The notes: a model not told the origin generated them from the sequence alone. Shown: positions 1-58,120, counted from the first letter of the stretch. The stretch: DNA of 64,000 nt from an uncultured Bacteroidales bacterium (GCA_963779845.1 CAVZZV010000002.1:53140-117139), one strand, 5' to 3'. Translations and numbers: made by a program.

Positions 1-1975
1 ATCGGCGGAACCCGCATTTAAAACAGTAATGTTATTGCTTGGAAAGTCCAGTCGATTAGAGCCTACATTTTCATGATAATTGGCTTCAAAGGAATGGGCG
101 GCCAACACATCAAAACGATGCTTGCCAAGATCTTTCTTATATTCCACCAATTGTTGTAATGTTTTATAACTATTAAAAATATTATTTACCGTCAAACTTG
201 ATGGCGTAAGAAAAACATTGTCATTGAGCCGTTGGGTTGCCTCAAATGCATCGTTCCTCCCGTTCAACTGGGTATATCCCGCCAATCAACGAAACTTTTA
301 AATTTTTAAAAACATCCCAATCCAAGCGGGCATTACTGTTCAAATCTGTTGTTTTGTTTTTATAAAAACCATCACTGGCCAATAACGAAACTGGTGTTCC
401 TACCCCGGCTAATCCTAATCCATAATCCCCATTGCTCAATATCGCAGGATAAATTGCCGGATACCTGAGCACCCAACCGATAATGCCTAAAGTCCCTTGT
501 GCATTGCCAGGAACAGACCCGGGAGTATTTGGCTGGTTATCGAGTGCCTGAATACCGGACAACCTGGTTGTCAATGTCAGGTTTTTTGCCAACTTAGAAG
601 TAAGGTTAAGGCGTATGTTATATCGGTTGTAATCGTTCTTGTCAATAATACCATTTTGGTACAAATATCCCATAGACAACAAATATTGCGTTTCACCCAC
701 TTTTTGTGAAATGGTGAGGTTGTGTGCCGTCTGAACGGAATTGTCTTTAAATATCTCATCAATATAATCCACGTTTGGGTAATGATCCGGGTCGGAACCA
801 TCTTTAAATTTTTGGATTTCTTCATCGGTATAGCCTCCCGCTCCACCTCCGGTTGCTTCATTTAACAATTCTGCATATTCCCACGAATCCACATACTTTG
901 GAAATTTGGAAGGTCTTTGAACCCCAAAATGTGCATTGTAAGAGATTTTAATTTTTTCGCTTTTCCCGGATTTGGTAGTGATCAGGATCACACCATTGGC
1001 TGCACGTGACCCATAAATAGCTGCAGATGACGCATCTTTTAAAACCGATATTTTTTCCACATCGTTTGGATCGATGTTGTCCATTGAATTGACGGGAATT
1101 CCGTCGACCAAGACTAAAGGTTCAGTTCCGGCTCCAAAAGAACCTACACCGCGAATCAGGATGCTCCCTCCCGGTGCCCCTGGTTGTCCGGAACGCTGTA
1201 TGACGGTTACTCCTGAAAGCTGCCCAGTTAGTGCTTGTCGCAACTGAGGAGTTGCCCTTTCATTGATATTTTCGGCATTTATTTGAGAAACCGAACCAAT
1301 AACATCGGCTCTCCTTTGGCTTCCATAACCAACCACTACCACTTCATCAATTGCCTTGAAATCCGTGTTGAGTTGCACATCAATTTTTGACAGGTTATTT
1401 ACCGATATTTCTTGTGTCTGCATCCCGATGAATGAAAAAACCAGCGTGGCATCGCCGGGCACGTTGGCAAGCAAATAGTTCCCATCAGCATTAGTAATGG
1501 TGCCGCTGGAAGATCCTTTCACTTGAACAGTTACACCAGGAAGCGGTTGGCCGCTAGTGTCGGTAACTTTGCCGGAAACGGACTTTTGTTGTTGTTGATT
1601 TTGAGAAAGGAAAGAGGGAGCCAGGATAATTTTCCGGTCAATAATGGTGTAAACCACATCGGTTCCTCTAAAAAGCTTATCAAGTACTATATTAATCTTC
1701 TCGTTATTAGCAGAGAAAGAAACTTCGCGATCTATGTCAACTAGTTTTTCGTTGTAGAGAAAGAAAAACTCTGAGAGTTCTTCAATTTCGTCCATCGCTT
1801 CCACTAATCTGGTATTAGAAAAATTAAGTGAAAGCCTGGCCTTTTGAGAATAGGTATCATTTGCAAAAGCTTGAAGGACAGAAACGAGTAGCAAGAATAG
1901 AGTAATTCGCATAATTCTGAATGTTTTCATTAAATAATGGAAATCACATTCATAAAAAAGTCTTAGTTTTTTCAT
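1..1975 (-). pseudogene. SusC/RagA-family TonB-dependent receptor with N-terminal STN signalling domain. The 3' end runs off the window. There is an apparent 1-nt frameshift near 272-281.
   Basis: ORF 242..1975 has a signal peptide, an STN-like segment (ARLSLNFSNTRLVEAMDEIEE...), a CarboxypepD_reg-like segment (VSGKVTDTSGQPLPGVTVQVKG) and plug motifs (VVVGYGSQRR, ILIRGVGS, VLKDASSAAIYGSRAANGVILITTKSG). After ...KVSLIGG the frame hits a stop. The adjacent frame continues as YTQLNGRNDAFEATQRLNDNVFLTPSSLTVNNIF...HSFEANYHENVGSNRLDF down to base 1. Confidence 0.85.
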
Positions 1976-2021
1976 AAATTTGCAATATTAAAAGTTAAAA
2001 AATTTGAAAAAGTTTTTTGAA

Positions 2022-2050
2022 GGAAATCGTTGGCGCGATTTCCTTTTTTT
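2022..2050. terminator. GC-containing hairpin with a T7 tract between fecR-like and susC-like genes
   Basis: The arms GGAAATCG (2022-2029) and CGATTTCC (2036-2043) are followed by TTTTTTT on the + strand. The hairpin lies downstream of the minus-strand fecR stop at 2102. Confidence 0.4.
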
Positions 2051-2101
2051 GTTTAGTTATGGATCATCTCTTAATTTCATTTTACTTAAATTTTGTTTAG
2101 A

Positions 2102-3151
2102 TTAATAGCCTTTTTTCTTGTACAATATCACTTTCGTTTTCTGTATTGTTCCATCATCCAGTAGTTTTCGATCTGTAATCCGATATCCTATGGGTGAAGT
2201 CATACTCAAATAGCGAAGGACCTCTTCCAGAGAATCATCCTGAAAAGTTCCGCTGAAAACGTACTTTTCTAACTCCTTACCAACCAGCTCCAAATCCACA
2301 TTATACCATCGTTCAATTCGTCGCGTAACTTCTGCCATTGGGTCACCCCGGAATACAAGTTTACCCTCTTTCCATGCAGAAAATTTTGAAGCGTCGGTTG
2401 CTTCAATATTAATAATTCCATCATTAAAAATCAATCGTTCATCAGGTTTCATTTCAATGGCTGTTGTTAGACCTGAAGTAGAAAATTCAACCTTCCCTTC
2501 TTCAAGTACAACCTCCAGGTATTCTTCTTCGGAATAAGAATTGAGGTTAAACTTTGTTCCCAACACCTTCACTTTTGAATCTCCAGCTGCTATTTCAAAT
2601 GGATGTTCTGTATCATGTGCCACATCGAACCAGGCTTCTCCATTCAAAACAATTTGCCTATTATTACTAAACGGAAGACTATAATCGAGAGAAGAGCCAC
2701 TGTTTAGCCATCCTGTGGTGCCATCGGGCAAAGAAAAACTGAACCGTGAACCCAGTGGTGCAAACAAGGTAGATTTTACCGGACTTTCAGCTAAAATTGG
2801 TTCTTCCTGTTTTTGTTCCATAAACCCGATAGCACCGGCTATAAGTATGGGAATAAGCAACACAGCTGCTGCCACCGAGTACCAACGATAAATCTTTTTT
2901 ACAATGGTTTGTTTTTTCTGATTTCCATTTTTATTAATGGTATGGTGAATGCGGTCAAGCAAATACGCAAGGTTATGATTTTCTTCAGGATGATTCTTCA
3001 GATATTCATCAAATTTCTTCTGTATCTGTTGTCTGAATTCGCTATTATCTTCATTATCCGTAAAGAGGGTCAAAATGTATTTTTCCTCCTCTGTATCGGA
3101 AAGTCCGTTACTGAACCGATCCAGTTTATCTATATCTTTTTGATTAAACAT
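2102..3151 (-). CDS. FecR-family anti-sigma factor / transmembrane sensor
   Basis: 349 aa with a central single TM segment (WYSVAAAVLLIPILIAGAIGF) and a FecR-type periplasmic domain with a C-terminal ...VLRYLSMTSPIGYRITDRK... segment. It sits between an ECF sigma gene and an STN-SusC gene. Confidence 0.85.
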   Translation of the reverse strand: MFNQKDIDKLDRFSNGLSDTEEEKYILTLFTDNEDNSEFRQQIQKKFDEYLKNHPEENHNLAYLLDRIHHTINKNGNQKKQTIVKKIYRWYSVAAAVLLIPILIAGAIGFMEQKQEEPILAESPVKSTLFAPLGSRFSFSLPDGTTGWLNSGSSLDYSLPFSNNRQIVLNGEAWFDVAHDTEHPFEIAAGDSKVKVLGTKFNLNSYSEEEYLEVVLEEGKVEFSTSGLTTAIEMKPDERLIFNDGIINIEATDASKFSAWKEGKLVFRGDPMAEVTRRIERWYNVDLELVGKELEKYVFSGTFQDDSLEEVLRYLSMTSPIGYRITDRKLLDDGTIQKTKVILYKKKGY

Positions 3152-3165
3152 TCACTTTTATTTTA

Positions 3166-3197
3166 AAAATCCTCCTTGAAATACAGGAGGATTTTTT
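3166..3197 (-). terminator. Perfect 10-bp hairpin with flanking T/A tracts, 15 nt upstream of the fecR start
   Basis: AAAATCCTCC (3166-3175) pairs with GGAGGATTTT (3186-3195) around a 10-nt loop. T runs follow the stem on both strands. Confidence 0.45.
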
Positions 3198-3360
3198 ACT
3201 TAACTAACTAAACTATCACTATGAAAAAAATGTATAGTCTTCTACCTTATAACTAATATGCTCTCACTAATGAAATCTCACGTAAAAAATGAACTTTTTT
3301 TTCATTTCCAATGAAACCCACCACAAGTAGCGCATATACAGTCTTTTAAAATGGGTGTTT

Positions 3361-3948
3361 TTATTGAATAAAAATAGCGAAGAATAGTAAAAGGGCGAAA
3401 TTCTTTTCGGATAAGTTTTTTCGTAAGAATTTAATAGTAGCTGATATTTGATTATCGACCGTTCCCGGAGCCAGGTTCATTTCATCTGCAATTTCCCGTG
3501 TACTTTTTCCCTCTTTCCGGCTTTTTATAAATATCACTTTTTGCTTTTCAGGAAGTTTATCAATCAACTTTTCAATTTGTTCAAGGGTTGATTTATATTC
3601 CAACTGGTCTTCCAAATTAACGGAAAGGTTTTCTTTAAACCCAATTTCATTTTGAAACTTTACCTGGATTTGCTTTTTCCTGAAAAGCCCACACAGATTA
3701 TGGTAAGTGATAGTAAAAAGATAAGATTTAAGGGAAAATTCTTTTTTTAGGTTAGCACGGTTTTCCCATATTTTGAGAAAAACATCCTGAACAAGCTCTT
3801 CTGTATATTCCTTCGACTTAAGATATTTTAAGGCGAATCCGAACAATCGGTCTCCGTACTTTCTAAAGATCTGGTCAAATGCTTCTATGTCTCCCTTTTG
3901 AAGCTTTTCGACCAATTCATAATCGGAATGATGTTCATATTTAGCCAT
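3361..3948 (-). CDS. ECF-type RNA polymerase sigma-70 factor
   Basis: 195 aa. Region 2-like sequence is FDQIFRKYGDRLFGFALKYL...VQDVFLKIWE. Region 4 HTH is LPEKQKVIFIKSRKEGKSTREIADEMNLAPGTVDNQI. Confidence 0.9.
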   Translation of the reverse strand: MAKYEHHSDYELVEKLQKGDIEAFDQIFRKYGDRLFGFALKYLKSKEYTEELVQDVFLKIWENRANLKKEFSLKSYLFTITYHNLCGLFRKKQIQVKFQNEIGFKENLSVNLEDQLEYKSTLEQIEKLIDKLPEKQKVIFIKSRKEGKSTREIADEMNLAPGTVDNQISATIKFLRKNLSEKNFALLLFFAIFIQ

Positions 3949-19336: not shown

Positions 19337-19729
19337 TTACATATTTTCTTCGTTAATTTTTTTTCTTTTTCTCCTCATAGATTCACCTTCTAGTTCAATA
19401 CGATGAGATTGATGTATTAATCTATCCAGGATAGCGTCTGCAATGGTTTTTTCTCCTATGATTTCATACCATCCTTTAACAGGGATTTGGGAAGTTACTA
19501 TTATAGATCCGCTATTATGTCTGTCTTCGATGATCTCTAAAAGTGCGATCCTGTTTTGATTATCAAGAGGTTGAAGCCCAAAGTCGTCAAGGATAATTAG
19601 GTTTTGTCTTTCGATCTTAGCATCGGTTATCATTGACACAAACTGATCTAAAGTATAGTCATCTGTTTTTCCTGTTTCAACAGCTATCTTAAATTCTCCA
19701 TGCATCCCATATAGCTTCATCTGTTTCAT
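19337..19729 (-). pseudogene. istB: IstB-like helper ATPase with an internal deletion (Walker A region missing)
   Basis: The 130-aa ORF joins the IstB N-terminus (MKLYGM...DQFVSMI) directly to the C-terminal part (LIILDDFGLQPL...SIIVTSQ...ADAILDRLIHQSHRIELEGESMR). Confidence 0.8.
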
Positions 19730-19937
19730 TTTCGTTAGTGTAATTTCATTTATTTTTTTGATTTTATTATTTATAATAGTTTTTCACCTCTAATGTTATT
19801 ATGTTCAGGAAGTTCCTGATCTGTTTCTTCTTCCTCTATAAGCATATCCAGTCTGTTTTTCAAGGATGTTTTGTATAACCTTGTAGTTATATACCTTGAA
19901 GTCTAATGCTCTCTTACAAGCTTTGATAAGCCTTTCA

Positions 19938-21053
19938 TTACCAACTTTTTTTGCATAACGACAGCACTCCCATACAGCTCTTATAGGCTTGTTCAGGATG
20001 TTGTTTTATTTCCAGCAGATTAGTAATGAAGAGCTTTACATCTTCATCTATTGAGGCTGCCCAGTTGATAAATCGTTGTGGAGTCCATTCTGTAATAAAC
20101 TGATGAGTTGTTGCTAAATGTTCCGTAACCGTTGTATAATTATAGAGCCGCAAATCTCTTTTGTGGATAGCAATGCGATTGTATTTATAATAAACTTCTA
20201 CCTTTTCACTGGTGTACATTATCTTTACCTTTTTACGGATATGCTGGAAAGGCACACTGTAATAATGTTTATCCACACCCAGCAAAACATGTCCGTTTTG
20301 CATTACTGTCGCAAAGCAAGTTGCTTTATTTCATAGCGTTCCACTGGCAGTGGCGATAGCTTTTCCTTTTCTATTTCATTAAACAAATCTTTTCGTGAGT
20401 GTGGTCGCCCGGTAAGTTTCTAGTTGTTATGTATTTCCAACTCTTTCCAAATAGCTTCATTCAGATCCTTTAGGTTATGAAAGACCTGTTTTCTTAGTAC
20501 TGGGTATATCCTTTGATAAAGTATTTTGACAGCTCCCTCTGCTAAAGATTTATCCCTGGGTTTATAAGCTCTGGCTGGTAGTATGGTAGTCCCATAATAC
20601 TCTGCAAAATCCAGAAAGGTCTCATTTATAGTCGGCTCATATCGGTTACTTTTTGAGACAGCGGACTTTAAGTTATCTGGGACAATGGCAGCAGGAACTC
20701 CTTCATACTAATGCATGGCGTTTTCTGTTGAGACAATAAAATCTTCTTTCTTTTGGCTCTCTAGATGCTTCTGCATAGGTATATTGACTTGCCCCTAGAA
20801 TAGAAACATAGAACTGTACTTCTTTAATCTCCCCTGTATCTTTATCAACCAGCTCCAGTGTTTTTCCTGCATAATCAATAAACATCTTGTCTCCGGCTTT
20901 ATGGTTCATATGCATCACTGGGTTGACTTTCTTGCTCCAGCGCAGATAGTGCTCGCAGAACTGAGAACTCATTAAACCGTCAGGTTGCTGCTTATAATAC
21001 TCCTCCCACATCGATTGCTTGGTTGTGCCGGTCTTTTTAAGCTCCCGTTCCAT
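19938..21053 (-). pseudogene. istA: IstA transposase, multiply frameshifted
   Basis: ORF 20703..21053 reads LMSSQFCEHYLRWSKK...HKAGDKMFIDYAGKT...VSILGASQYTYAEAS. ORF 19938..20303 is the C-terminal part. The DDE middle lies in other frames. Confidence 0.8.
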
Positions 21054-22443: not shown

Positions 22444-22517
22444 TGGGCCCAGCTGGGCTCGAACCAGCGACCCTCTGATTATGAGTCAGATGCTCTAACC
22501 AGCTGAGCTATGGGCCC
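22444..22517 (-). tRNA. tRNA with CAU anticodon (elongator Met or lysidine-modified Ile2), CCA not encoded
   Basis: The minus strand reads GGGCCCATAGCTCAGCTGGTTAGAGCATCTGACTCATAATCAGAGGGTCGCTGGTTCGAGCCCAGCTGGGCCCA. It folds as a full cloverleaf with a 7-bp acceptor stem and the anticodon loop CTCATAA. Confidence 0.95.
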
Positions 22518-36977: not shown

Positions 36978-38069
36978 ATGAATAACCATGATTATTGTGT
37001 TATTATGGCCGGAGGGATTGGCAGCCGTTTCTGGCCTTTGAGCCGTTCCTCAAAACCAAAACAATTTCTCGACATCCTGGGAATGGGGAAGAGCCTTCTT
37101 CAGCAAACTTTTGAGAGATTTGAATCTATTATCCCCATGGACAATATTTATATTGTCAGCAATGCGGAATACGCAGAGGTGATAATGGAACAATTGCCGG
37201 AGTTGAATCCCGACAATATCCTCCTGGAGCCTTTGAGAAGGAATACCGCCCCATGCATTGCCTACGCGGCCTACAGGATTTTAAAAAGGGATCCGCAGGC
37301 CCGCATGGTTGTGGCACCTTCCGACCATCTGATCACGAAGGAGAAAATATTTCAGGATGTGGTTATGGAAGGTTTGAATTTCGTGGGCAATAATAATGCC
37401 TTGCTTACCATTGGTATAAAACCTTCGAGGCCGGAGACGGGCTATGGATACATCCAGGTGAATTCGGAACAAATTAAGTCCGGTAAGTCCATCATGCGAA
37501 AAGTGAAAACATTCACAGAAAAGCCTGATCGAAAACTGGCAGAGGTTTTTGTTGAAAGTGGAGAATTTTTCTGGAATGCAGGGATCTTTTTTTGGTCTGT
37601 AAAAGCAATTAATGAAGCATTTAGCATTCATTTACCGGAAGTGTCCCGTGTTTTCGCTGAAGGTATGGATCATTATGGGACCAAAAGCGAAAAAAGCTTT
37701 GTGGAGAAAACATATTCTGCATGCAAAAATATTTCCATCGATTATGGGATCATGGAAAAGGCCGAGAATGTGTTTGTCCTCACCGCCGATTTTGGCTGGT
37801 CTGACCTTGGAACCTGGGGTTCATTGTACGACCAGGTTGAAAAGGACGGGGATAAGAATGCGGTAATGGGGAAAAATGTATTCCTCTATGATGTGGAGAA
37901 TACATTAGTGAATGCCCCAAGGGAAAAGCTGGTAGTTATACAGGGTATTGATAACTGTATAATTGTGGACAGTCCGGATGTATTGCTGATCTGCAAAACA
38001 AGTGAAGAACAGCGTATCAAGAATTTCGTGAACGATGTAAAAATTGGGAAGGGAGAGGTTTACATTTAG
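36978..38069 (+). CDS. manC: Mannose-1-phosphate guanylyltransferase
   Basis: 363 aa. The N-terminus is CVIMAGGIGSRFWPLSR, the nucleotidyltransferase motif. A TAATTTTG box lies at 36965-36972. Confidence 0.85.
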   Translation: MNNHDYCVIMAGGIGSRFWPLSRSSKPKQFLDILGMGKSLLQQTFERFESIIPMDNIYIVSNAEYAEVIMEQLPELNPDNILLEPLRRNTAPCIAYAAYRILKRDPQARMVVAPSDHLITKEKIFQDVVMEGLNFVGNNNALLTIGIKPSRPETGYGYIQVNSEQIKSGKSIMRKVKTFTEKPDRKLAEVFVESGEFFWNAGIFFWSVKAINEAFSIHLPEVSRVFAEGMDHYGTKSEKSFVEKTYSACKNISIDYGIMEKAENVFVLTADFGWSDLGTWGSLYDQVEKDGDKNAVMGKNVFLYDVENTLVNAPREKLVVIQGIDNCIIVDSPDVLLICKTSEEQRIKNFVNDVKIGKGEVYI

Positions 38070-38073
38070 TATT

Positions 38074-38976
38074 CTAGTATTCCCACAAATCGTGTTCGAA
38101 ATTGAAGATTTCACCTTTAATTCTTTCGGCCTCATAGAGTATATCATCGCCAGTCAGGTAATCCGGGATAAAGCGGTTATCGAACTGGTTTGATTCTGCA
38201 TATATGAAGGAGGCAAACCTTCTCTGCATGATCAGATCGTCAAAAGAGATATTTTGCGAATCGTTGTGTGGATTGAAAACTTCGTATTTTGCAAACAGAT
38301 CCCTGTATTCCGGAAAATATATCCAGAAAAGCACTTCGCGTGTTACTTCAGGGGAGGTGGTGATATTTCCATTCACATCCACCAGCTGGCGGTTAAATAC
38401 CTTTATCGGGGCGATTCCCATGATCCTGACTTTCATCGTAGAAGCCTGTTTATCGAAGAACCATTTCTCTTTTACCAGCAATTGCTTCACATCCGGGGTA
38501 TTGATCCTGACCTGTTCATCCGGTGTACCTTTAAACAGGGTGTCGGCTCCCAGTTTGGTTATGATCTCGTTCATCCCGATAAGGGTTTCGGTCTGAAATA
38601 ACTGGTATTTATCATCCTTATAGGCATGAAGGTTCTCTTCGTTTATCCCATGAAAAATAAGGCTGATAAGGCTCATTCGCTGATTAATCGGATTTAACGG
38701 ATAGTACAATGGTTGGTTCATCTTCTCGCGAAGGTCAATAATCCTCCAGATATCTTTAGACCACATTACATCTGCTTCCCTGATGGGAGCGTAGGGGATG
38801 GCCTTTTTCTGTGGAATATGGATATTCTCATAGACATTGTAGATGTCCGGTACCCCGGCGTTCATTTGCGGGTTTCCCTGCGCAGGCTGGGTTGTCTGTG
38901 TAACTCCTGTCTGGCCGTTAACCATCAATGTAAATCCGGCTAAAACAGCTATACACGTTACAGCAATTTTATTCAT
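38074..38976 (-). CDS. gldN: Gliding motility / T9SS periplasmic ring protein GldN (PorN)
   Basis: The probable start is MNKIAVTCIAVLAGF, a signal peptide. It is the last gene of the gldKLMN order. The ORF track extends it by 32 in-frame codons (see findings). Confidence 0.85.
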   Translation of the reverse strand: MNKIAVTCIAVLAGFTLMVNGQTGVTQTTQPAQGNPQMNAGVPDIYNVYENIHIPQKKAIPYAPIREADVMWSKDIWRIIDLREKMNQPLYYPLNPINQRMSLISLIFHGINEENLHAYKDDKYQLFQTETLIGMNEIITKLGADTLFKGTPDEQVRINTPDVKQLLVKEKWFFDKQASTMKVRIMGIAPIKVFNRQLVDVNGNITTSPEVTREVLFWIYFPEYRDLFAKYEVFNPHNDSQNISFDDLIMQRRFASFIYAESNQFDNRFIPDYLTGDDILYEAERIKGEIFNFEHDLWEY

Positions 38977-39069
38977 CCGTACGAAATTTCTTTTCAATGG
39001 CCGGATGGAGCTCGCATGTACATTCTGGTCATGCGAAGTTGTGTTTTTGTAAATACATGCTCGGTTCAT
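38974..39069 (-). promoter_or_regulatory. gldM-gldN intergenic element: 28-nt conserved box plus two hairpins
   Basis: The box (minus strand) is ATGAACCGAGCATGTATTTACAAAAACA at 39042-39069. Hairpin 1 is TCGCATG/CATGCGA at 39012-39036. Hairpin 2 is CATCCG/CGGATG at 38974-39007, and its 3' arm contains the gldN ATG. Confidence 0.6.
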
Positions 39070-39081
39070 CACTATGTAGTA

Positions 39082-40665
39082 TTAAATAATTTTTAAAACA
39101 ATAGAATTAAGTGCCCTTACTTTACCATCGGGACCAATGGCTTTAATATCAGTTACAGTCAGGGTCTTCCCTGCGCTTAGCTGACTAATTATTTCGATCT
39201 GAGGTCTGGTGAATTTAGCGTTATCGGATTTTTCGGATTTGGAAAAACCTCCGGACAAAACGGCGGACACCATAAATTCGGTTACCGTAAAGTCCAGGTC
39301 AAATAGGAAGTTCTCAAGAACAGCATCCACTCCTCTGGCCGAAGTAAGCTGGGGCATGGTAATGGCCCCCTGGGAGCGGCCGGCAATTTTTGCCACGGGG
39401 GGAGGGACATCTTTTACCCGGAAGTCCATGCTGCCCATAAAGCGGCGGTTGTTGTCAACCGTAGCATAAACTCTGACGCTGATCACTTCATCTTCCGGAC
39501 CTGCAGCCGGAGAAACCTGCCATTCGCCATTGGAGGTTCTGCTGATTTTTCCTTTGGTAATATCGGCCTGTATATTTTCCTTGGGCACCCCCGAAACAGA
39601 GATGGCCACCGGATTTGCCACGCCCCTGTAAAATACGTTCATTTTAGTTGGGGAAACTACAGCACTGGCCTCGGCCACCTGGTATTCTTCTGAAAATTTC
39701 CTGACAATGGTGTTTCCGTCATCCCCTTCAATAACAATGGTTCCACCCCATTTTTTCAATCCGGTTGCAGAGGTGGTGGAGGTAAAGATCCCTTTTCCAT
39801 CCTTTACATCCAGTTTGGACCCGTCGTTAAGGGTCACCGTGGGGAGTTTCGTGGAGTCGTATGCGGCCAGGAACACCTGTGCCTTATACTCCTGTCCCTT
39901 GAAAACGTAATCTGATGACTCAAGTACAACAGCTTCAATTTTGTTAAATTTGAAGGAACCGGCATCAATCTGGCTTAAAAGATAACCCAGCATTTCCGCT
40001 TCGGTATTCCTTACATCCGATTGCATTTTGGATAATATGGTAATTACCGAGGCAAGAGGAAGATGTTCAAAGTGTTCTGATTCCCAGGAAAGTTTTTCCC
40101 CCTTGGAATGGGAACTTTTTTCCGGTGGATTGGTATCAAGGGTACTTTCAACCGATGAGACAACCGGTGCATAGTCTTCCTTGTTTTCAATCATCGAAAG
40201 AAGGCTCTCCCGGTAATAATCGATCTGCTTTTTGAGTTCTTCACCCCGTTTTTTTTGGATCATTATCTCAGCGGGCACGTCGGCATTGTCTTTAGCGGTT
40301 ACCAGGGCAAGATCAATTTCATCATCCTGAATAGCCGGGGTTTCCGGTCCTTCAGAAGTGACAATAATTTCCTTTTTTGCTTCCTGGATAAAGTGGTACA
40401 ATGAATCGGACATAGCCTGAACACGGTCTGCACGAGCTTTCCAATCGCCCACCTTGGTAGGGTTAAGTTCATTGGCTGCCTGAAAGTCGGAATAAAGGCT
40501 GTTGTTTTTCTTTGAAAAATTTTCAGTGGTTTCAGTCAAACCTCTGTCAACCAATACAAATGCGTCAAGAACATCTTTGGATACATTGAGTGCCAATAGT
40601 GCGGTAAGCACCAGGTACATCATACCAATCATTTTCTGACGCGGGGTTTCCTTACCGTGGGCCAT
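39082..40665 (-). CDS. gldM: Gliding motility / T9SS protein GldM (PorM)
   Basis: 527 aa. The N-terminus MAHGKETPRQKMIGMMYLVLTALLALNVS is the single TM segment characteristic of GldM. Confidence 0.9.
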   Translation of the reverse strand: MAHGKETPRQKMIGMMYLVLTALLALNVSKDVLDAFVLVDRGLTETTENFSKKNNSLYSDFQAANELNPTKVGDWKARADRVQAMSDSLYHFIQEAKKEIIVTSEGPETPAIQDDEIDLALVTAKDNADVPAEIMIQKKRGEELKKQIDYYRESLLSMIENKEDYAPVVSSVESTLDTNPPEKSSHSKGEKLSWESEHFEHLPLASVITILSKMQSDVRNTEAEMLGYLLSQIDAGSFKFNKIEAVVLESSDYVFKGQEYKAQVFLAAYDSTKLPTVTLNDGSKLDVKDGKGIFTSTTSATGLKKWGGTIVIEGDDGNTIVRKFSEEYQVAEASAVVSPTKMNVFYRGVANPVAISVSGVPKENIQADITKGKISRTSNGEWQVSPAAGPEDEVISVRVYATVDNNRRFMGSMDFRVKDVPPPVAKIAGRSQGAITMPQLTSARGVDAVLENFLFDLDFTVTEFMVSAVLSGGFSKSEKSDNAKFTRPQIEIISQLSAGKTLTVTDIKAIGPDGKVRALNSIVLKII

Positions 40666-40676
40666 GCTGTTAGATC

Positions 40677-41642
40677 TTATTTTTTAGTAATGACGCTCAT
40701 CGCGGAGAGCATGTTACCGTATATGTTATTTAACTCAGAGAGATTTTGACTCAATTTACTGATCTCTGTACGGTATTTTTGGGTTTCGTCCACAGATGAC
40801 CTTAAGTTCTGCATCATATCTTCCATTCCTGAGAAAACTTTGTCTGTTTCTTTGGCTCGCTGCAAACTGCCGTTTAACTGACTTGCATAGGCGCTGTTTA
40901 ATTCTGCCAGGTTTTTGTTCAGACTGCTCAATTGTTCTCCAAACTGCTTTTGTCCGGATGAAATGTTGCTATAATCACTTTTCACCGATTGGGTAATCTG
41001 GTTATAGGAGGCAGTCAGTTCAGATGCTTGTTGTGCAAATTTCTGGGCTACCTCTTCTCCCGATTTATTAACCATTTCGGCTGTTTTCTGATAGGAAGAA
41101 GCGAGGCTGTTCACCGAATCATTCAGATTTCCTGTATTTTGGGCGTAGGAGTCTGAGACCGTGTGTATAGCTTCAGAGGCTGCTCTCATGTTATTGAGGT
41201 ATTCTTTGGTAGCAACCGATGCAGCAGTAATATCTGAGAGATTTGCTGAGGTCTGGCTTAAGCTGTTAAGTCCGGTACTAAGGCTTTTTAGTGTCTCAGG
41301 CTGAATATTGGCGTCTTTAAACAACTCGTCAAATTTTTGCAATCCAATCCCTCTGCCGGAGAGACTTTCCTCCCTGAAATTGTCCATCTCATCGGGATCG
41401 GTCATGCCGGCAAGTTCAGGATATACCAATGTCCAGTCGAGTTCCTCGTGTAAAGGTTCGAAAGCAGAGAAGAAGAAAATAATTGATTCTGTGGTGAGGC
41501 CTGCTACAATCATTACACTTGCAAAGGGCCAGTGCATGATCTTGAACATAGCTCCAATAATAACAACGGATGCTCCTATACCGTAGAGTTTGGCCATGAA
41601 ATTCTTCCATCCCGAACTCTGAACAATTTCAGTAACGTTCAT
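40677..41642 (-). CDS. gldL: Gliding motility / T9SS protein GldL (PorL)
   Basis: 321 aa with two N-terminal TM helices (YGIGASVVIIGAMFKIMHWPFASVMIVAGL) and a long Ser/Asn/Gln-rich helical C-terminus. Confidence 0.85.
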   Translation of the reverse strand: MNVTEIVQSSGWKNFMAKLYGIGASVVIIGAMFKIMHWPFASVMIVAGLTTESIIFFFSAFEPLHEELDWTLVYPELAGMTDPDEMDNFREESLSGRGIGLQKFDELFKDANIQPETLKSLSTGLNSLSQTSANLSDITAASVATKEYLNNMRAASEAIHTVSDSYAQNTGNLNDSVNSLASSYQKTAEMVNKSGEEVAQKFAQQASELTASYNQITQSVKSDYSNISSGQKQFGEQLSSLNKNLAELNSAYASQLNGSLQRAKETDKVFSGMEDMMQNLRSSVDETQKYRTEISKLSQNLSELNNIYGNMLSAMSVITKK

Positions 41643-41660
41643 AATAAAACTTTTTTTAAA

Positions 41661-43022
41661 TTATTTTGCACCTAAGTATGAACGGACACATCTGAATCCT
41701 ATATAGGATTTCGCGGTATCCTGGTATTCATAATCCCTGACACTGACCTGAAGGAAATGGGCCACATCTTTCCATGAGCCGCCCCTTACCACCTTACGTT
41801 TCATTACCGGAGGATCATCGGGTTTGGCGTTGTATTTATAATCAGGATTCATATTATGTGAAAATACATAGGCAGATTCATCGTATGCGTTCGCAGTCCA
41901 CTCAGCAACGTTTCCGGCCATATCATACAATCCGTATTCATTAGGGGAATAGGAGCCTACCCGTTGGGTAATCAGAGCCCCGTCGTCGATATAATTTCCC
42001 CTTAGCGGTTTAAAATTGGCCACGAAACAACCCAGTTGGTTACGGGTATAGGGGCCACCCCACGGATACATGCTGAGATCGAGGTTGCCTCTTGCCGCAT
42101 ATTCCCATTCCGCTTCAACCGGAAGGCGGTAATCCTGTACGAAAGGTTGGTCTTCACCGGCCAGGGCCGAATTCAGGAACTGGGTCCTCCATATACAAAA
42201 TGCGCTTGCCTGCTTCCAGCTTACACCGACCAGGGGATAATTATCATAGGAAGGATGCCAGAAATATAGGTTAGCATAAGGTTCGTTGAACGAATAGGAG
42301 AAATCGGCGATCCATGCAAGGGTATCAGGATAAACCCCGACTTTATCTTTGAAAATAAAGGATTGGCGGCCTTCAACCGGAGAAGTGGTGCCATCCAGAT
42401 TAGTCACAGTTCCTTCATATTGCTCTGTCTGATAATTGTAGCGATTGGCTCGTTTGGCTGCCTGCTGCATATCGATCCAGTAATAGTTGTAAATTAACTT
42501 TTCAACGGCAAGCTCCTTACGTCCAAAAAACTGGGCATCCCCGGAATAGTACAGACCAATCCGGTCGATCGTATTCTGAACATCGCCGTTTTTATCATCA
42601 TATTCTATTTTGGTACTCCAGTCAATCAATGCAGATTCCTGTCCGTTTTTATTGGCCATAATAGGATTACCTTCTCTATCCTTAAGGATATAGTCGTCAA
42701 TCTGATCGTCCACCAACGCCTGACGAAGGATGGAATCTCTCACCCAGTAAACAAACTGACGGTATTCGTTATTGGTAATTTCGGTTTCGTCCATCCAGAA
42801 GGCGTCGATAGTGACCGTTTTGGACATGGAATTTTGGGCGAAACTGACATCCTGATCGCTGGGTCCCATAACAAAACTTCCGGCAGGAATAAAAAGCATT
42901 CCGTAAGGATTGGGTTCAACATAGCCTTTTCGACCTTCTACACCGACCAATTCACCACTGTTATAATTAGCGCAACTGCCAAGGATGGCCAGCATGCTCA
43001 GAAGGGTAAGAAAATTTTTCAT
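41661..43022 (-). CDS. gldK: Gliding motility / T9SS lipoprotein GldK (PorK), FGE-sulfatase fold
   Basis: The probable start is MKNFLTLLSMLAILGSC, which has a lipobox. It carries SUMF1/FGE motifs including RGGSWKD. The ORF track extends it by 44 in-frame codons. Confidence 0.9.
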   Translation of the reverse strand: MKNFLTLLSMLAILGSCANYNSGELVGVEGRKGYVEPNPYGMLFIPAGSFVMGPSDQDVSFAQNSMSKTVTIDAFWMDETEITNNEYRQFVYWVRDSILRQALVDDQIDDYILKDREGNPIMANKNGQESALIDWSTKIEYDDKNGDVQNTIDRIGLYYSGDAQFFGRKELAVEKLIYNYYWIDMQQAAKRANRYNYQTEQYEGTVTNLDGTTSPVEGRQSFIFKDKVGVYPDTLAWIADFSYSFNEPYANLYFWHPSYDNYPLVGVSWKQASAFCIWRTQFLNSALAGEDQPFVQDYRLPVEAEWEYAARGNLDLSMYPWGGPYTRNQLGCFVANFKPLRGNYIDDGALITQRVGSYSPNEYGLYDMAGNVAEWTANAYDESAYVFSHNMNPDYKYNAKPDDPPVMKRKVVRGGSWKDVAHFLQVSVRDYEYQDTAKSYIGFRCVRSYLGAK

Positions 43023-43023
43023 T

Positions 43024-43142
43024 CCCGAAGTACTCATCTTCGTTGTCCTGACAGACCACCTTCTCATAGCTTCAGGGGCAGAGAAACCTGCATTCTTTTC
43101 TTCATGCAGGGATCTGTTTTTGTAAAAACATGCTCGGTTCAT
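43024..43142 (-). promoter_or_regulatory. gldK leader element: 28-nt conserved box plus hairpins
   Basis: The box (minus strand) is ATGAACCGAGCATGTTTTTACAAAAACA at 43115-43142. Hairpin 1 is CCTGCAT/ATGCAGG at 43087-43110. A weaker long-range pairing CCC(T)GAAG/CTTCGGG (43024-43078) ends 1 nt before the ATG. Confidence 0.6.
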
Positions 43143-43220
43143 AGTTATCTTCATATTAATTGCAGATACAATTTGTCTATTTATAAAAATTTAAAACTTC
43201 AAGTAACCTCTTTTTCCTTG

Positions 43221-44168
43221 TTACAGGAATCTTACGCTCTTATATTTCTGGGGCGATTTATCCAGACCGAAGTCAAAGCAGTATCCCAAAGAGAGTTCAT
43301 GGCTTCCGCCACTGTAGTTGAACATCTTAGAGACAACAAAATCGTAGGAATACCCAACCCTTACGCCATTGAATAACTCAATGCCGAATAGTCCTACGAT
43401 TGCATCACCGGCTCTGTAAGAAACGCCACCCCAAATCTTTTTATTGTATTTGAGATGGGCATTCAAATAAAGCTGGTTCGCTTTTCCATCAGATTTTAGA
43501 ATGAACGAAGGCATTAACTCAAAAAGAGGGTTTGCCATTTGCAGTGTATAACCTCCTGTTATATAATAATGTCTGACGAGGTTCGTGACTGCATTTTCAT
43601 ACCTTATACGGGATTGATTCAAATGGGTTGTGGAAATTCCTAAAAAAAGATGGTCTGTTTTGTAAAAAAGGCCCAAACCCATGTCAAAACCTGCTCGTGC
43701 TTCTTTGGTTTGAGGGATTACCGGATCCCCCTGAACATCACCGCCAGTACCGGTTTCATCGGAAATGATCCATTCCGGATCGATGGATTTATTTAGCATT
43801 CCAAAATTTGCACCAAGACCTAATTTCCCTTTGCCTAAATCTATTTTATAGGAATAAGAGAGCATAAACCCAAGGTCGGAATAAAATCCGTAAGCATCAT
43901 TTAGTATTGAAATAGCGGCGCCATGATTGGCCCCGAGAAATGTAAATGGAGCATCGGCACTGAAAAATGAGGTCGAGGGAGCTCCCTTAAAACCGGACCA
44001 CTGTTCCCGGTGTACAGCGTTAAGACAAATTTTCTCATTACTACCCGCTGAACCAGGATTAAAAAAGTTCAAAACAGAACGGGTCTGACTGAATTCGGGA
44101 TCCTGCTGGGAGTAAATTTTGGTAAAACCCAAAAGAATGACGGACAATATGATTAATCTTTTTAACAT
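43221..44168 (-). CDS. porP: Type IX secretion system membrane protein PorP/SprF
   Basis: 315 aa with a signal peptide, then QQDPEFSQTRSVLNFFNPGSAG. It lies immediately upstream of gldK, as in porPKLMN. Confidence 0.85.
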   Translation of the reverse strand: MLKRLIILSVILLGFTKIYSQQDPEFSQTRSVLNFFNPGSAGSNEKICLNAVHREQWSGFKGAPSTSFFSADAPFTFLGANHGAAISILNDAYGFYSDLGFMLSYSYKIDLGKGKLGLGANFGMLNKSIDPEWIISDETGTGGDVQGDPVIPQTKEARAGFDMGLGLFYKTDHLFLGISTTHLNQSRIRYENAVTNLVRHYYITGGYTLQMANPLFELMPSFILKSDGKANQLYLNAHLKYNKKIWGGVSYRAGDAIVGLFGIELFNGVRVGYSYDFVVSKMFNYSGGSHELSLGYCFDFGLDKSPQKYKSVRFL

Positions 44169-44290: not shown

Positions 44291-45449
44291 TCAACTATAT
44301 CTGCGCATTCTTCTCCACCAGCGGTCGGGGATTTCACTATTGCATGCCCTTGTGTAGTCCTCATACGAACAGGCAAGAATATGGTTACGTCCTGATAAAG
44401 AATCTACTATCGGGAGTTCAATCCACCAGCGGTCAGTAAGGCTACTTTTGTAAAAAGTCATGTTTTCAGAAGGGTGATTCGCTTTTACAATATATTTTTT
44501 ACTGTTCCCTGTTTGTGGATCTTCGTGGGTTCTAATGGAAAATCCATCAATAAAATACCAGATCGACTGGGCGGCCAAATGGGAAGTTTGGTCGTTGATG
44601 TCCTTGTTTGGATGGACTTCAAAAAATCCGATGGACTTAATTTTATCGGAAGCACCGGCGTATCTCGACATTTGGCAAAGCTCATGCCCAAAGAACCCGT
44701 TAGGACTTGGCAGGCTAACCCCGGGAGCTTCCGATTGCCTAATGCAGCTCATGTCGATACTCAACAAGTCAGTGTCACGTAATACCGGCTCAAGGCTCTG
44801 GAGATTGGCCCTTGCTTCACCCAGACGGATAGCATTCATGCCCAAGATCATCCATTTTGTCGATAAGCTTTGCCGGGGTAAAATACAGCTGATGCCCAAT
44901 GTTGATGTAGTTCAGCCTGGAGGCATTTTTTAATTTGAAAATACTTTCCAGGTAATTCCTTGAGCTAAATTCAGCTTTGTCCCATCCAAAATCCAACCTG
45001 GAATCAAGGGAGGTCAGGTTGCAATGACCTGCGAATTTTTCCATCCCAAGGGTCAGGGAATAACTCAGGTCCTGGCTTCCACCAAGGACAATAGCCACTA
45101 CATTTTTTTCAGCCAATTCCAGCAAAACATCCCTTAATCCAAAATAACTATCATTAATATTCTCTGTTTTTTTCAGATTTCCCAGATCGGCAATTTTTAT
45201 TTTTTTATGGACAGAGGTGAGCAGATATAGTTTTTCCCTTATTTTGTCCGGAGCGTTTTCGGCTCCTTTAATGAAAGCACCGCGGTCTTCCCCTGCCCCC
45301 AGGATGGCAATGTCAAAATCCGAAATGTTTTTTAAAGGGGTATCGGGAGTATGTATTTTAATGGATCTTCCAAAGCCATCCTCTCCCCGAATCAGGTTAA
45401 TGGATGGCTTTTCGAGGCTTACCGGATCAAAATAATCGACGATATTCAT
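44291..45449 (-). pseudogene. Arginase/formimidoylglutamase-family protein split by a frameshift (44817-44899 overlap)
   Basis: ORF 44817..45449 (…DIAILGAGEDRGAF…VVAIVLGGSQDLSY…) and ORF 44291..44899 (…LLSIDMSCIRQSEAPGV…) are collinear halves. The junction is ...KMDDLG / MNAIRLGEARANL. Confidence 0.65.
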
Positions 45450-56120: not shown

Positions 56121-56147
56121 ACTTGCAATAGTTTTCCGGACATTTTA

Positions 56148-56972
56148 TTAAGCAACTAATTGATTTATTAAATTCTCTTTTTTGTTTTTAATTGATGTTT
56201 TTATTGTCGTATGAATCCTGTTTACATTGTACCACGCTTCAATGTACTCAAAAACAGATAATTGTGCTTCTTTAAAAGTCTTGTAATTATTTTGATAAAC
56301 GTGTTCAACTTTCAATGTTTTAAAGAAGCTTTCAGCAACTGCATTATCCCAACAATCTCCTTTACGACTCATGCTTCTTTGTACAAGCTTATATGATGAC
56401 AGCAGGTTTTTAAACTCATTGCAGGCATATTGGACACCTCGATCAGAATGAAAAATAAGCACTTGGGTAATGGGTCGGTTCCTGATGGCCATCTTCCATG
56501 CAGGAATGGTTGTAAAAATCGCCTTTAAAGATTTGCTAAAAGCCCATCCAATAACTTTTCTATCATAAAGATCTATTATAACAGTCAAATAAAGCCACCC
56601 TTGGTAGGTTTTAATATAAGTGATATCAGAGACCCATACTTGCCCTGATCTGCTCACATTAAAGTCTCTGTTGAGCCTATTCTCAACCACCGGATACTTA
56701 TGCTTGGAATCTGTTGTAATAATCCACTTTTTTCGTATTACGCTCTGCATATTTTGCTTTTTCATTAATCGAGCTACTTTCGGTCGTGATACGTGTATTC
56801 CTTCTTCTAAAAGTGCTAAGGTAACCCTGGGACTGCCATAGGTCTTCTTGCTGAGCTCGTATATCTTTTTTATGCGATATGATAACTCATCGTTCAATTT
56901 ATCCCGCTTACCCGGTTTATGCACCAGCCAACCGTAATATGAACTCCTGCTTACCTTTAAAACTTTACACAT
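56148..56972 (-). CDS. IS3 OrfB (DDE integrase-core transposase)
   Basis: 274 aa: ...VWVSDITYIKT...IFHSDRGVQYA...DNAVAESFFKTLKVE. The frame continues upstream to the slippery site. Confidence 0.9.
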   Translation of the reverse strand: MCKVLKVSRSSYYGWLVHKPGKRDKLNDELSYRIKKIYELSKKTYGSPRVTLALLEEGIHVSRPKVARLMKKQNMQSVIRKKWIITTDSKHKYPVVENRLNRDFNVSRSGQVWVSDITYIKTYQGWLYLTVIIDLYDRKVIGWAFSKSLKAIFTTIPAWKMAIRNRPITQVLIFHSDRGVQYACNEFKNLLSSYKLVQRSMSRKGDCWDNAVAESFFKTLKVEHVYQNNYKTFKEAQLSVFEYIEAWYNVNRIHTTIKTSIKNKKENLINQLVA

Positions 56973-57004
56973 CTTCTCAATGGGAAATATGGAGTCGTTT
57001 GCCC

Positions 57005-57316
57005 TTATGAATTGGAATATTTGCCATCGCTCTTGGAGAAAATGCTTACAGCTTTTTTTAAGATGTCACGTTCTATCTGTGCATCGTAAAGCTCCTTCTT
57101 CAATCTGGCTATCTCTTTTTGATCTTCTGTCTGGATCTTATTTCCCTGACCAGGAAAACTTGCTTCCAGATGTTTGTTTGCTTCCCGTCTCCAACGGTAG
57201 ATCAGATCAGCTCGGATATCCAGTTCAGCTGCTAGTGCTGTGTAGTCCTCACGATTATTACTCAGTTCCAGTACCATCTGTTTAAACTCTCGATCAAATT
57301 TTCTTCTTTTTTTCAT
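57005..57316 (-). CDS. IS3 OrfA (HTH)
   Basis: 103 aa: MKKRRKFDREFKQMVLELS...ADLIYRWRRE, then a leucine-zipper-like tail. Confidence 0.9.
   Translation of the reverse strand: MKKRRKFDREFKQMVLELSNNREDYTALAAELDIRADLIYRWRREANKHLEASFPGQGNKIQTEDQKEIARLKKELYDAQIERDILKKAVSIFSKSDGKYSNS
57052..57060 (-). promoter_or_regulatory. Programmed -1 ribosomal frameshift slippery site
   Basis: The minus strand reads TTAAAAAAAGC (A7G). The -1 frame reads ...KKSCKHFLQERWQIFQFIRANDSIFPIEKMCKVLKVSR and joins OrfB. Confidence 0.75.
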
Positions 57317-57352
57317 AACAGTAAAATTAAGTTTTTTAGCTTAACTTAATGT

Positions 57353-57620
57353 CCAGATAAAGGTAGCAGTTGCATTGCTGTGGCTTTGGTCAATGCTTCG
57401 TGTTTATTACATTTTTCTTTTAACTGAATAAACTCTATGGTGTCGCCATTGGCTTTGCAACCAAAGCAGTTAAAGGTGTTTGTTTCGGGTATATTTTTAG
57501 GCTCGGCTCTTTTTCTTCATGGAAAGGGCATTTGAGCATGTGGTTTCGGTTGGCTTGTAGTCCGTAGTGGTTTAGTACTGTTTCAATGCTTAAACGCTGC
57601 TTTATTTCTTGGATTTCCAT
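57353..57620 (-). pseudogene. CHC2 zinc-finger DNA primase N-terminal remnant (frameshifted, truncated by IS3)
   Basis: MEIQEIKQRLSIETVLNHYGLQANRNHMLKCPFHEEKEPSLKIYP is followed, after a 1-nt shift, by ETNTFNCFGCKANGDTIEFIQL.... The frame runs into the IS3 right end. Confidence 0.7.
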
Positions 57621-57736: not shown

Positions 57737-57778
57737 TAAAAACATTGATTTTTATAGCATTTTAATAACTTATCAGTT

Positions 57779-58120
57779 ATGAAAATAGGAGATAAAATAA
57801 GTAGCTTGCGCAAGCAAAAAGGATTGAACCGAGATGAACTCGGTAAAATCGTGGGAACTTCTGGTGCAGTAATTGGAAGATATGAAAGAGACGAGATTAC
57901 TCCATCGGTTGAAATTGCAAGAAAAATGGCTGATGCATTGGAAGTTTCTTTGGACTATCTGACTGGTAGCACCAATTTTGTGATACAGGATAAAAAAATG
58001 CTTTACCGCTTGGAGCTTTTACAAAAAATAGCACAACCGGAAAGGGACAGGATTCTTTTAGTTATGGATTCTTTATTAAGAGATGCACAGATTAATTTAA
58101 TACAACAAAAACTGGCTTAA
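57779..58120 (+). CDS. XRE-family helix-turn-helix transcriptional regulator (module 2)
   Basis: MKIGDKISSLRKQKGLNRDELGKIVGTSGAVIGRYERDEITPSVEIARKMADALEVSLDYLTG. Confidence 0.85.
   Translation: MKIGDKISSLRKQKGLNRDELGKIVGTSGAVIGRYERDEITPSVEIARKMADALEVSLDYLTGSTNFVIQDKKMLYRLELLQKIAQPERDRILLVMDSLLRDAQINLIQQKLA

Follow-up and report, generated by a model that had tools for sequence, protein, structure and literature searches.

Rickettsia palindromic elements (RPEs) are short sequences found as in-frame insertions within protein-coding genes (Ogata et al. 2000, summarised in PMC10969869). We analysed a 64,000-nt stretch of DNA from an uncultured Bacteroidales bacterium (GCA_963779845.1 CAVZZV010000002.1:53140-117139; hereafter the window, with positions counted from its first letter), in which gldK and gldN, two type IX secretion system (T9SS) genes, each carry a short insert beginning with a common 28-nt box and a hairpin. 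Our preferred description is of twin in-frame insertions, specific to one lineage, that lie behind the ancestral start codons of gldK and gldN. Like RPEs, the inserts are short (~90–150 bp), hairpin-bearing, non-autonomous sequences within open reading frames (ORFs), which keep the frame, would add a peptide without destroying the host protein and belong to one lineage. RPEs, however, are multi-copy and occur in many unrelated genes, whereas two copies are known here, each placed at codon 2 of its gene, and both genes belong to a single operon. In addition, the gld inserts lack terminal inverted repeats, only their 5' half is common to the copies, and the added peptide would lie in a predicted cleavable signal peptide rather than in the mature protein. 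Classical miniature inverted-repeat transposable elements (Correia, ERIC, RUP and similar) resemble the inserts in size, flanking short direct repeat (ATGAA), internal hairpins, gene-boundary location and co-transcription, but the missing terminal inverted repeats and the differing 3' ends set the gld inserts apart; two copies were counted in the 64 kb covered. The predicted N-terminal extension, MNRAC[F/I]YKN..., recalls ESPR (PF13018) of proteobacterial autotransporters in preceding an ordinary signal peptide; here, in contrast, the phylum and the class of protein are different, orthologues do not conserve the extension, and constraint appears at the level of nucleotides rather than residues. 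An ESPR domain was rejected, as no Pfam family, PF13018 included, matched either extended N-terminus at E up to 10. Translational operators and leaders that adjust subunit ratios within operons, such as those of ribosomal-protein operons, also place a short sequence and a hairpin at the translation start of particular cistrons in a polycistronic mRNA; the gld element differs in not being conserved and in having the ancestral start codon at its 5' edge, and is therefore probably translated.

NCBIfam profiles identified porP/sprF (43221–44168), gldK, gldL, gldM and gldN in the window, all on the minus strand (Table 1). The box has the consensus ATGAACCGAGCATGT[T/A]TTTACAAAAACA (as a pattern, CCGAGCATGT[T/A]TTTACAAAAACA, its 5' end being CCGAGCATGT) and comprises the ancestral ATGAA joined to the first 23 nt of the insert. 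Its two minus-strand copies, identical at 27/28 positions, form 28-bp direct repeats; they lie in one operon, point the same way and are separated by 4,073 bp. A third copy with ≤3 mismatches was not found within the window, nor did any of 100 dinucleotide-preserving shuffles yield a match at this threshold; the duplicated box described by an earlier sequence-only reading of this DNA thus stands, both in its coordinates and against shuffling. Ungapped similarity between the two inserts extends over 41 nt, through a common GCATGA, and the box together with hairpin 1 (~59 nt) is homologous between them. Past hairpin 1, likeness drops to chance (global alignment; 913/2000 shuffles score as well). 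The sole difference within the box is non-synonymous (F/I), with 0 synonymous differences over 9 codons; as read from the two copies, conservation of the box is at the nucleotide level, not the codon or residue level. The contrast between box and remainder reflects one of three things: nucleotide-level constraint, copying or conversion that was recent and confined to the box, or an origin as a mosaic.

Two further properties of the boxes were noted. Each box contains a second ATG (GC-ATG-T), from which a mini-ORF of 9 codons runs in a different frame (43131–43102 and 39058–39029, minus strand), giving the peptides MFLQKQIPA (gldK copy) and MYLQKHNFA (gldN copy), both of which stop at the common GCATGA; the 41-nt similarity stretch terminates exactly at the mini-ORF TGA. 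The boxes also bracket gldK, gldL and gldM, and recombination between them would remove all three, after which gldN would follow a hybrid leader.

Comparison with 85 orthologous porP–gldKLMN loci (1.06 Mb) placed the inserts in evolutionary context. A scan tolerating ≤8 mismatches, nhmmer and a covariance model of the box with hairpin 1 all placed the box in 0/85 loci, the latter two recovering their training copies only. Box-free loci include that of the nearest relative, whose GldK (86% identical) is the closest among 5.8 billion proteins; further relatives reach 83% and 77–80%. A protein identical to the window's GldM is not on record. Gene order in the loci inspected in detail is PBP1, topA, arginase-family gene, porP, gldK, gldL, gldM, gldN, convergent manC and mlaE. 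The spacers differ in length: porP–gldK measures 79–90 nt in close relatives versus 198 nt in the window, and gldM–gldN 11–20 nt versus 105 nt. At gldN, the 12 nt from the gldM stop to the box ATG (TACTACATAGTG) match the full spacer of one relative, locus L082 (AATCATATAGTG), which there adjoins the gldN ATG; the sequence immediately before this ATG reads TACATAGTG in the window and CATATAGTG in L082, and the flank motif CATAGTG-ATGAA is alignable with relatives. At gldK, MAFFT aligned the box ATGAA with the gldK ATGAA of 7 relatives, with a conserved GCAA-TAA...CT upstream. Since the native spacers are intact and the flanks can be aligned up to the box ATG, it is at this ATG that both genes ancestrally started. 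The comparison indicates, with high confidence, derived insertions at exactly these positions within this lineage only.

The sequence-only reading had proposed a leader element for the gldKLMN/porKLMN operon and a T9SS/gliding regulon. Neither is borne out: the box is missing from all 85 loci, and the spacers of close relatives are too short to hold such an element. Absence from orthologous loci, which that reading had itself named among the observations that would speak against it, is what we found (0/85). The wider searches were equally negative. The 28-mer had zero exact matches in 185,579 species genomes; the 22-mer box core and a codon-degenerate MNRAC[FI]YKN pattern had zero in JGI metagenomes, the 22-mer core zero in IMG/VR, and the gldK element zero by blastn in plasmids and phages. 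Neither extension peptide was found by word-index search of the 5.8 billion proteins, nor the 40-residue extension by phmmer against 1.84 billion representatives. Rfam at gathering score gave no match at the box, the sole match in the window being a tRNA (22444–22517), and Rfam in E-value mode returned eukaryotic noise far below threshold, or nothing. Blastn-short and local alignment for further copies within the window returned a 15-nt AT-rich piece and a 19-nt piece of manC only.

Other features of the relatives' spacers are recorded here. Among close relatives, loci L001–L004, L081, L082 and L084 have a conserved GCAAATAA(TACC) within 25 nt 5' of the gldK ATG, with TTTTTATAAAG further upstream; the window retains GCAATTAA. 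The motif may be the clade's native gldK promoter or 5' untranslated region (UTR) signal. More distant relatives, titled Prolixibacter, Saccharicrinis and Marinilabiliaceae, among others (L031, L041, L052, L054, L063, L064, L066, L075, L076, L079, L080), have non-coding gldM–gldN spacers of 65–120 nt, some of which seem to hold inverted repeats (e.g. L079, L063, L054) unrelated to the box. These long spacers were rejected as analogues because in-frame stops lie upstream of the signal-peptide Met (L063 alone is open to the gldM stop).

Table 1. Positions of the gldK and gldN inserts, their parts and other features of the window
Feature	Coordinates	Strand	Remarks
28-nt box, gldK copy	43115-43142	minus	ATGAACCGAGCATGTTTTTACAAAAACA; ATG at ancestral gldK start-codon position
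28-nt box, gldN copy	39042-39069	minus	ATGAACCGAGCATGTATTTACAAAAACA; ATG at ancestral gldN start-codon position, 12 nt past gldM stop
Insertion unit, gldK	43023-43142	minus	120 nt = one ATGAA + 115 nt; frame 1 open: MNRACFYKNRSLHEEKNAGFSAPEAMRRWSVRTTKMSTSG
Insertion unit, gldN	38977-39069	minus	93 nt = one ATGAA + 88 nt; frame 1 open: MNRACIYKNTTSHDQNVHASSIRPLKRNFVR
Second ATGAA, gldK	43018-43022	minus	5-nt direct repeat with 43142-43138; opens lipoprotein signal peptide MKNFLTLLSMLAILGSC
Second ATGAA, gldN	38972-38976	minus	5-nt direct repeat with 39069-39065; opens signal peptide MNKIAVTCIAVLAGFTLMVNGQ
Hairpin 1, gldK copy	43087-43110	minus	CCTGCAT / 10-nt loop / ATGCAGG; arms 43110-43104 / 43093-43087
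Hairpin 1, gldN copy	39012-39036	minus	TCGCATG / 11-nt loop / CATGCGA; arms 39036-39030 / 39018-39012; in register with gldK hairpin
Hairpin 2, gldK copy	43026-43042	minus	CGAAG, ATGAGTA, CTTCG; ends 3 nt 5' of downstream ATG; no like-sequence counterpart in gldN copy
Stem 2, gldN copy	38974-39007	minus	CATCCG ... CGGATG, 6 bp; downstream gldN ATG inside stem
Native porP-gldK spacer	43143-43220	minus	78 nt, intact; aligns with relatives' 79-90-nt spacers
Native gldM-gldN spacer	39070-39081	minus	12 nt, intact; close relatives 11-20 nt
gldK (PorK/GldK), from conserved signal-peptide Met	41661-43022	minus	open frame reaches upstream to 43154
gldN (PorN/GldN), from conserved signal-peptide Met	38074-38976	minus	open frame reaches upstream to 39072
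Arginase/formimidoylglutamase-family gene, two overlapping frames	44291-45449	minus	frameshift near 44835-44842; between topA and porP
IS3-family element	56132-57360	minus	HTH_Tnp_1 ORF 57005-57316, rve ORF 56148-56972, ~22-nt terminal inverted repeats
IS21-type fragments	19337-20303	minus	IstB C-terminal part and piece of IstA/Mu-transposase C-terminus; degraded IS near tRNA 22444-22517
Extracytoplasmic function (ECF) sigma factor, FecR-type anti-sigma factor, STN-domain TonB-dependent receptor	242-3948	minus	3361-3948, 2102-3151 and 242-1975, respectively

The box ATG of both genes is in frame with the downstream gene and followed by no stop, which is the key fact of the feature. This had been noted in the sequence-only reading with extensions of 44 and 32 codons, values that refer to the furthest ORF start; from the box ATG the lengths are 40 and 31 codons. 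The unit lengths, 120 and 93 nt, are both divisible by three, and each unit is stop-free in the gene's frame only, with stops in the other two. Shuffled inserts have an open frame with a probability of 0.087 (gldK) or 0.188 (gldN), and the joint probability of being in frame and open is ~0.002 (shuffles, multiplied by 1/9 for both lengths) or ~0.01 if random genomic segments are used. From the second ATGAA onward the profiles of GldK and GldN can be aligned, as can all homologues, the GldN signal peptide there beginning MNKIAV....

Our preferred mechanism, to which we give even to slightly better than even credence from sequence comparison, is translation of the inserts, which would lengthen the signal peptides at their N-termini and be cleaved off with them. 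Ribosomes would still initiate at the ancestral (box) AUG, which at gldK keeps its native 5' UTR and at gldN lies at a 12-nt distance from the gldM stop that would permit coupled re-initiation. Translation would then run in frame through 40 (gldK) or 31 (gldN) extra codons into the ordinary signal peptide, and the extension would be discarded with the cleaved signal peptide, leaving mature GldK and GldN unchanged. Given initiation at the ancestral AUG and the need to reach the signal peptide in frame, only in-frame, stop-free versions would survive; out-of-frame or stop-containing inserts would have cost an essential T9SS component. Start-site context was scored at A-3, A-6, A-12 and A-13, the start determinants found for Flavobacterium johnsoniae (PMC6847099). 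At gldK, the box AUG has 3/4 determinants (A at -3, -6 and -12) versus 1/4 at the downstream AUG, where these positions read G, U and A; at gldN the two AUGs score 2/4 each. Predicted unpaired probabilities are 0.83 (gldK) and 0.45 (gldN) for the box AUGs versus 0.08 and 0.01 for the downstream AUGs. The gldN box AUG keeps the distance from the gldM stop seen in relatives, with the downstream AUG 105 nt away and within a 6-bp stem. Both extensions carry a net charge of about +5 (our own count from the sequences), forming a long positive region before the signal peptide.

As to the source of the inserted DNA, the ATGAA direct repeat bounding both inserts resembles a target-site duplication, and our most economical guess is a mobile element or small repeat that duplicates 5 bp of its target. 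Known element types were considered as well. An IS200/IS605-derived element (PATE) was rejected since only the 5' hairpin is common to the copies, the 3' hairpins differing in sequence and position, as was a solo end of the window's IS3 element, whose terminal repeats (56132–56153 and 57339–57360, core TGTCC[A/G]GA) are unrelated to the box.

Overall, we lean modestly towards derived in-frame insertions that are tolerated and translated; the element is not a conserved T9SS leader, operator or promoter. Several observations weigh against this reading. An extension of 31–40 residues ahead of a signal peptide is unusual, its export and cleavage being predictions. The accepted gldM and porP start codons also score 0.01–0.04 unpaired, and accessibility is therefore weak evidence for start choice. 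Terminal inverted repeats were not found at the inserts, the 5' end CCGAGCATGT agreeing with the reverse-complemented 3' ends CCGAAGTACT and CCGTACGAAA at 4–6/10 positions. Only two copies occur in 64 kb, both at equivalent positions in one operon, and with ~125 ATGAA sites expected in the window (a uniform-composition estimate, not a count) random transposition is an awkward fit. No further copy turned up in the genome, metagenome, viral, plasmid, phage or protein collections searched. Lastly, the 3' parts of the inserts are unrelated (913/2000 shuffles) while the boxes are 27/28 identical, and this uneven conservation suggests constraint on the box or a mosaic origin.

The perfect 7-bp hairpins noted in the sequence-only reading are present, although they begin 4 and 5 nt past the box rather than 5–6 nt, and their sequences are not unrelated as had been stated: the two are aligned in register and have a common GCAT(G) core. 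Among the aligned hairpin 1 pairs (n = 8), 4 are invariant, 2 are compensatory (C-G versus U-A) and 1 becomes a wobble; in the gldK copy the remaining one does not pair. The second pairings also exist as described, CGAAG/CTTCG near the gldK ATG and CATCCG/CGGATG containing the gldN ATG. Under a lineage-specific cis-regulatory RNA module, which we consider unlikely but the strongest competitor to tolerated insertion, each insert would be a 5' or intercistronic leader, translation of both proteins would start at the downstream AUGs, and the box with hairpin 1 would be bound by an RNA-binding protein or small RNA; binding would alter the downstream pairings, in which the gldN start codon is hidden and next to which the gldK start codon lies, so that the two ring subunits encoded in one polycistronic mRNA are co-regulated. 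GldK/PorK and GldN/PorN are partners in the same ring, and a common control point is plausible. Such a module would account for a near-identical box next to a remainder at chance similarity, for the retention of hairpin 1 with two compensatory pairs, for the predicted pairing of the downstream AUGs, and for conservation of nucleotides rather than codons. Yet it leaves the in-frame, stop-free state of both inserts without a reason, and the ancestral AUGs, which persist upstream in native contexts, would compete; Bacteroidia normally avoid additional AUGs near start sites (PMC6847099). Rfam gives no match, predicted folding energies are ordinary (z-scores -0.5 to -2.4), and the compensatory pairs, which come from two sequences and are equalled in 115/500 shuffles, carry no statistical weight. 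Its absence from every relative means that it is not a general T9SS mechanism.

A programmed -1 frameshift site was rejected, although a hairpin lies 4–5 nt past the box: the zero-frame heptamer is C AAA AAC, and its first triplet is not homogeneous.

Alternatively, a single insertion may have been followed by a local copy, with the 5' part moved to the start of the other gene by ectopic recombination or template switching at the ATGAA microhomology, or homogenised by gene conversion. The identity of the boxes would then reflect recency, not function. The number of copies (just two), their spacing of 4,073 bp, their common orientation and operon, and the abrupt boundary from near-identity to no similarity all agree with this, and a 19-nt stretch of the gldK insert agrees at 18/19 positions with the antisense strand of nearby manC and at 13/13 with that of the gldN interior, a hint that local sequence served as template for a patchwork. 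On the other hand, 28–41 nt is at or below the usual minimum for homologous conversion, the paired substitutions in hairpin 1 point to divergence from a longer common ancestor, and the mechanism is hypothetical. We regard a local copy as doubtful, somewhat more so than the RNA module.

The 19-nt stretch has several relations within the window. On the plus strand, the end of the gldK box and the first hairpin arm (ATGCAGGGATCTGTTTTTG, 43104–43122) are 18/19 identical to manC coding sequence at 37576–37594, and within the gldN interior the coding strand at 38293–38305 agrees with ATGCAGGGATCTGTTTTTG at 13/13 positions. With the window masked, the manC stretch is the best local match that the gldK insert has (score 16 versus a maximum of 14 in 60 shuffles), and the window contains exactly 3 occurrences of CAGGGATCTNTTT, none more than 6 kb from the others. 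manC and gldN also contain a 33-nt inverted repeat of 82% identity (37559–37591 versus 38293–38325) in different reading frames. From these matches, a gldK leader RNA would be complementary to the gldN and manC mRNAs; chance, a templated origin or RNA pairing may each lie behind them.

About as doubtful as the local copy is a module kept for a purpose, in which an identical initiation region, the first nine codons and a hairpin of conserved structure sit on exactly the two outer-membrane ring cistrons, GldK/PorK and GldN/PorN. Their synthesis or export would then be kept in step, apart from the intervening GldL/GldM motor genes, either by a single factor acting in trans (protein or small RNA) or by a pre-sequence common to both N-termini.

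Less probable still is a DNA-level site, namely a dimeric-regulator operator on TGTTTTT-AC-AAAAACA, an ECF promoter on GAACC or an antisense promoter, each of which had been raised from the sequence. The palindromic core is a perfect 7+7 inverted repeat in the gldK copy, but the sole base that differs between the boxes breaks it in the gldN copy, and a symmetric operator is therefore disfavoured. GAACC, read as an ECF -35 element, does occur in both copies; by direct reading, however, the 16–17 nt position beyond it holds AAACAG or AACACA, with no CGT-type -10, as judged by the general ECF consensus. The opposite strand is indeed one base off TAnnTTTG, but no pair of TTTG (-33) and TAnnTTTG (-7) lies at either element on either strand, and such pairs are no more frequent in the window than expected (3 observed versus 4.0). 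Neither a sigma-70-type promoter nor an intrinsic terminator was detected at either site, and the sites lie within former, probably still, coding sequence. A Xer/dif-like 28-mer was also rejected by direct reading, its arm and spacer geometry being unsuited.

Chance resemblance, to which only the AT-rich, low-complexity 3' half of the box lends anything, a 15-nt part of it (ATGTTTTTACAAAAA) recurring at 57745–57731, is effectively refuted by the shuffles (0/100 match) and by the position of both copies, which is the same relative to the ancestral start codon. The recurring piece, an exact copy of part of the box core on the minus strand, lies in AT-rich intergenic DNA upstream of a helix-turn-helix (HTH) gene (57779–58120); it scored E 0.007 by blastn-short versus E 50 by nhmmer, and is probably low-complexity chance.

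The wider window shows signs of insertion and decay: an insertion sequence (IS) of the IS3 family, fragments of IS21, and two frameshifted genes, one of the arginase family and one primase-like and truncated by an IS. With both insertion sequences and frameshifted genes present, insertion and decay are evidently active in this genome. The arginase-family gene, unbroken in L082 (a single 385-residue gene), is either a pseudogene here or split by a sequence error. The fragment adjoining IS3 has another frame (57435–57620) that reads like what we take to be a CHC2-zinc-finger primase. The 52–58 kb neighbourhood, with HTH, RelE-like and ORF6N genes, is probably an integrated mobile region. The ECF/FecR/TonB trio is ordinary trans-envelope signalling with no detectable link to the box.

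Because no relative examined has the box, the feature has no general bearing on T9SS regulation and is an oddity of one lineage. For annotation it matters that gene callers would pick the long ORFs or the wrong ATG, the conserved signal-peptide Met lying 40 and 31 codons downstream of the ancestral start. If the box is a binding site, it would be a rare case in which two stoichiometric partners of one operon have newly come under coordinate control. Should the extensions be translated, the locus would be a natural case of small insertions surviving in the disposable signal-peptide part of two essential secretion-machine genes, and a natural test of how Bacteroidia, which lack Shine-Dalgarno sequences, choose among neighbouring AUGs.

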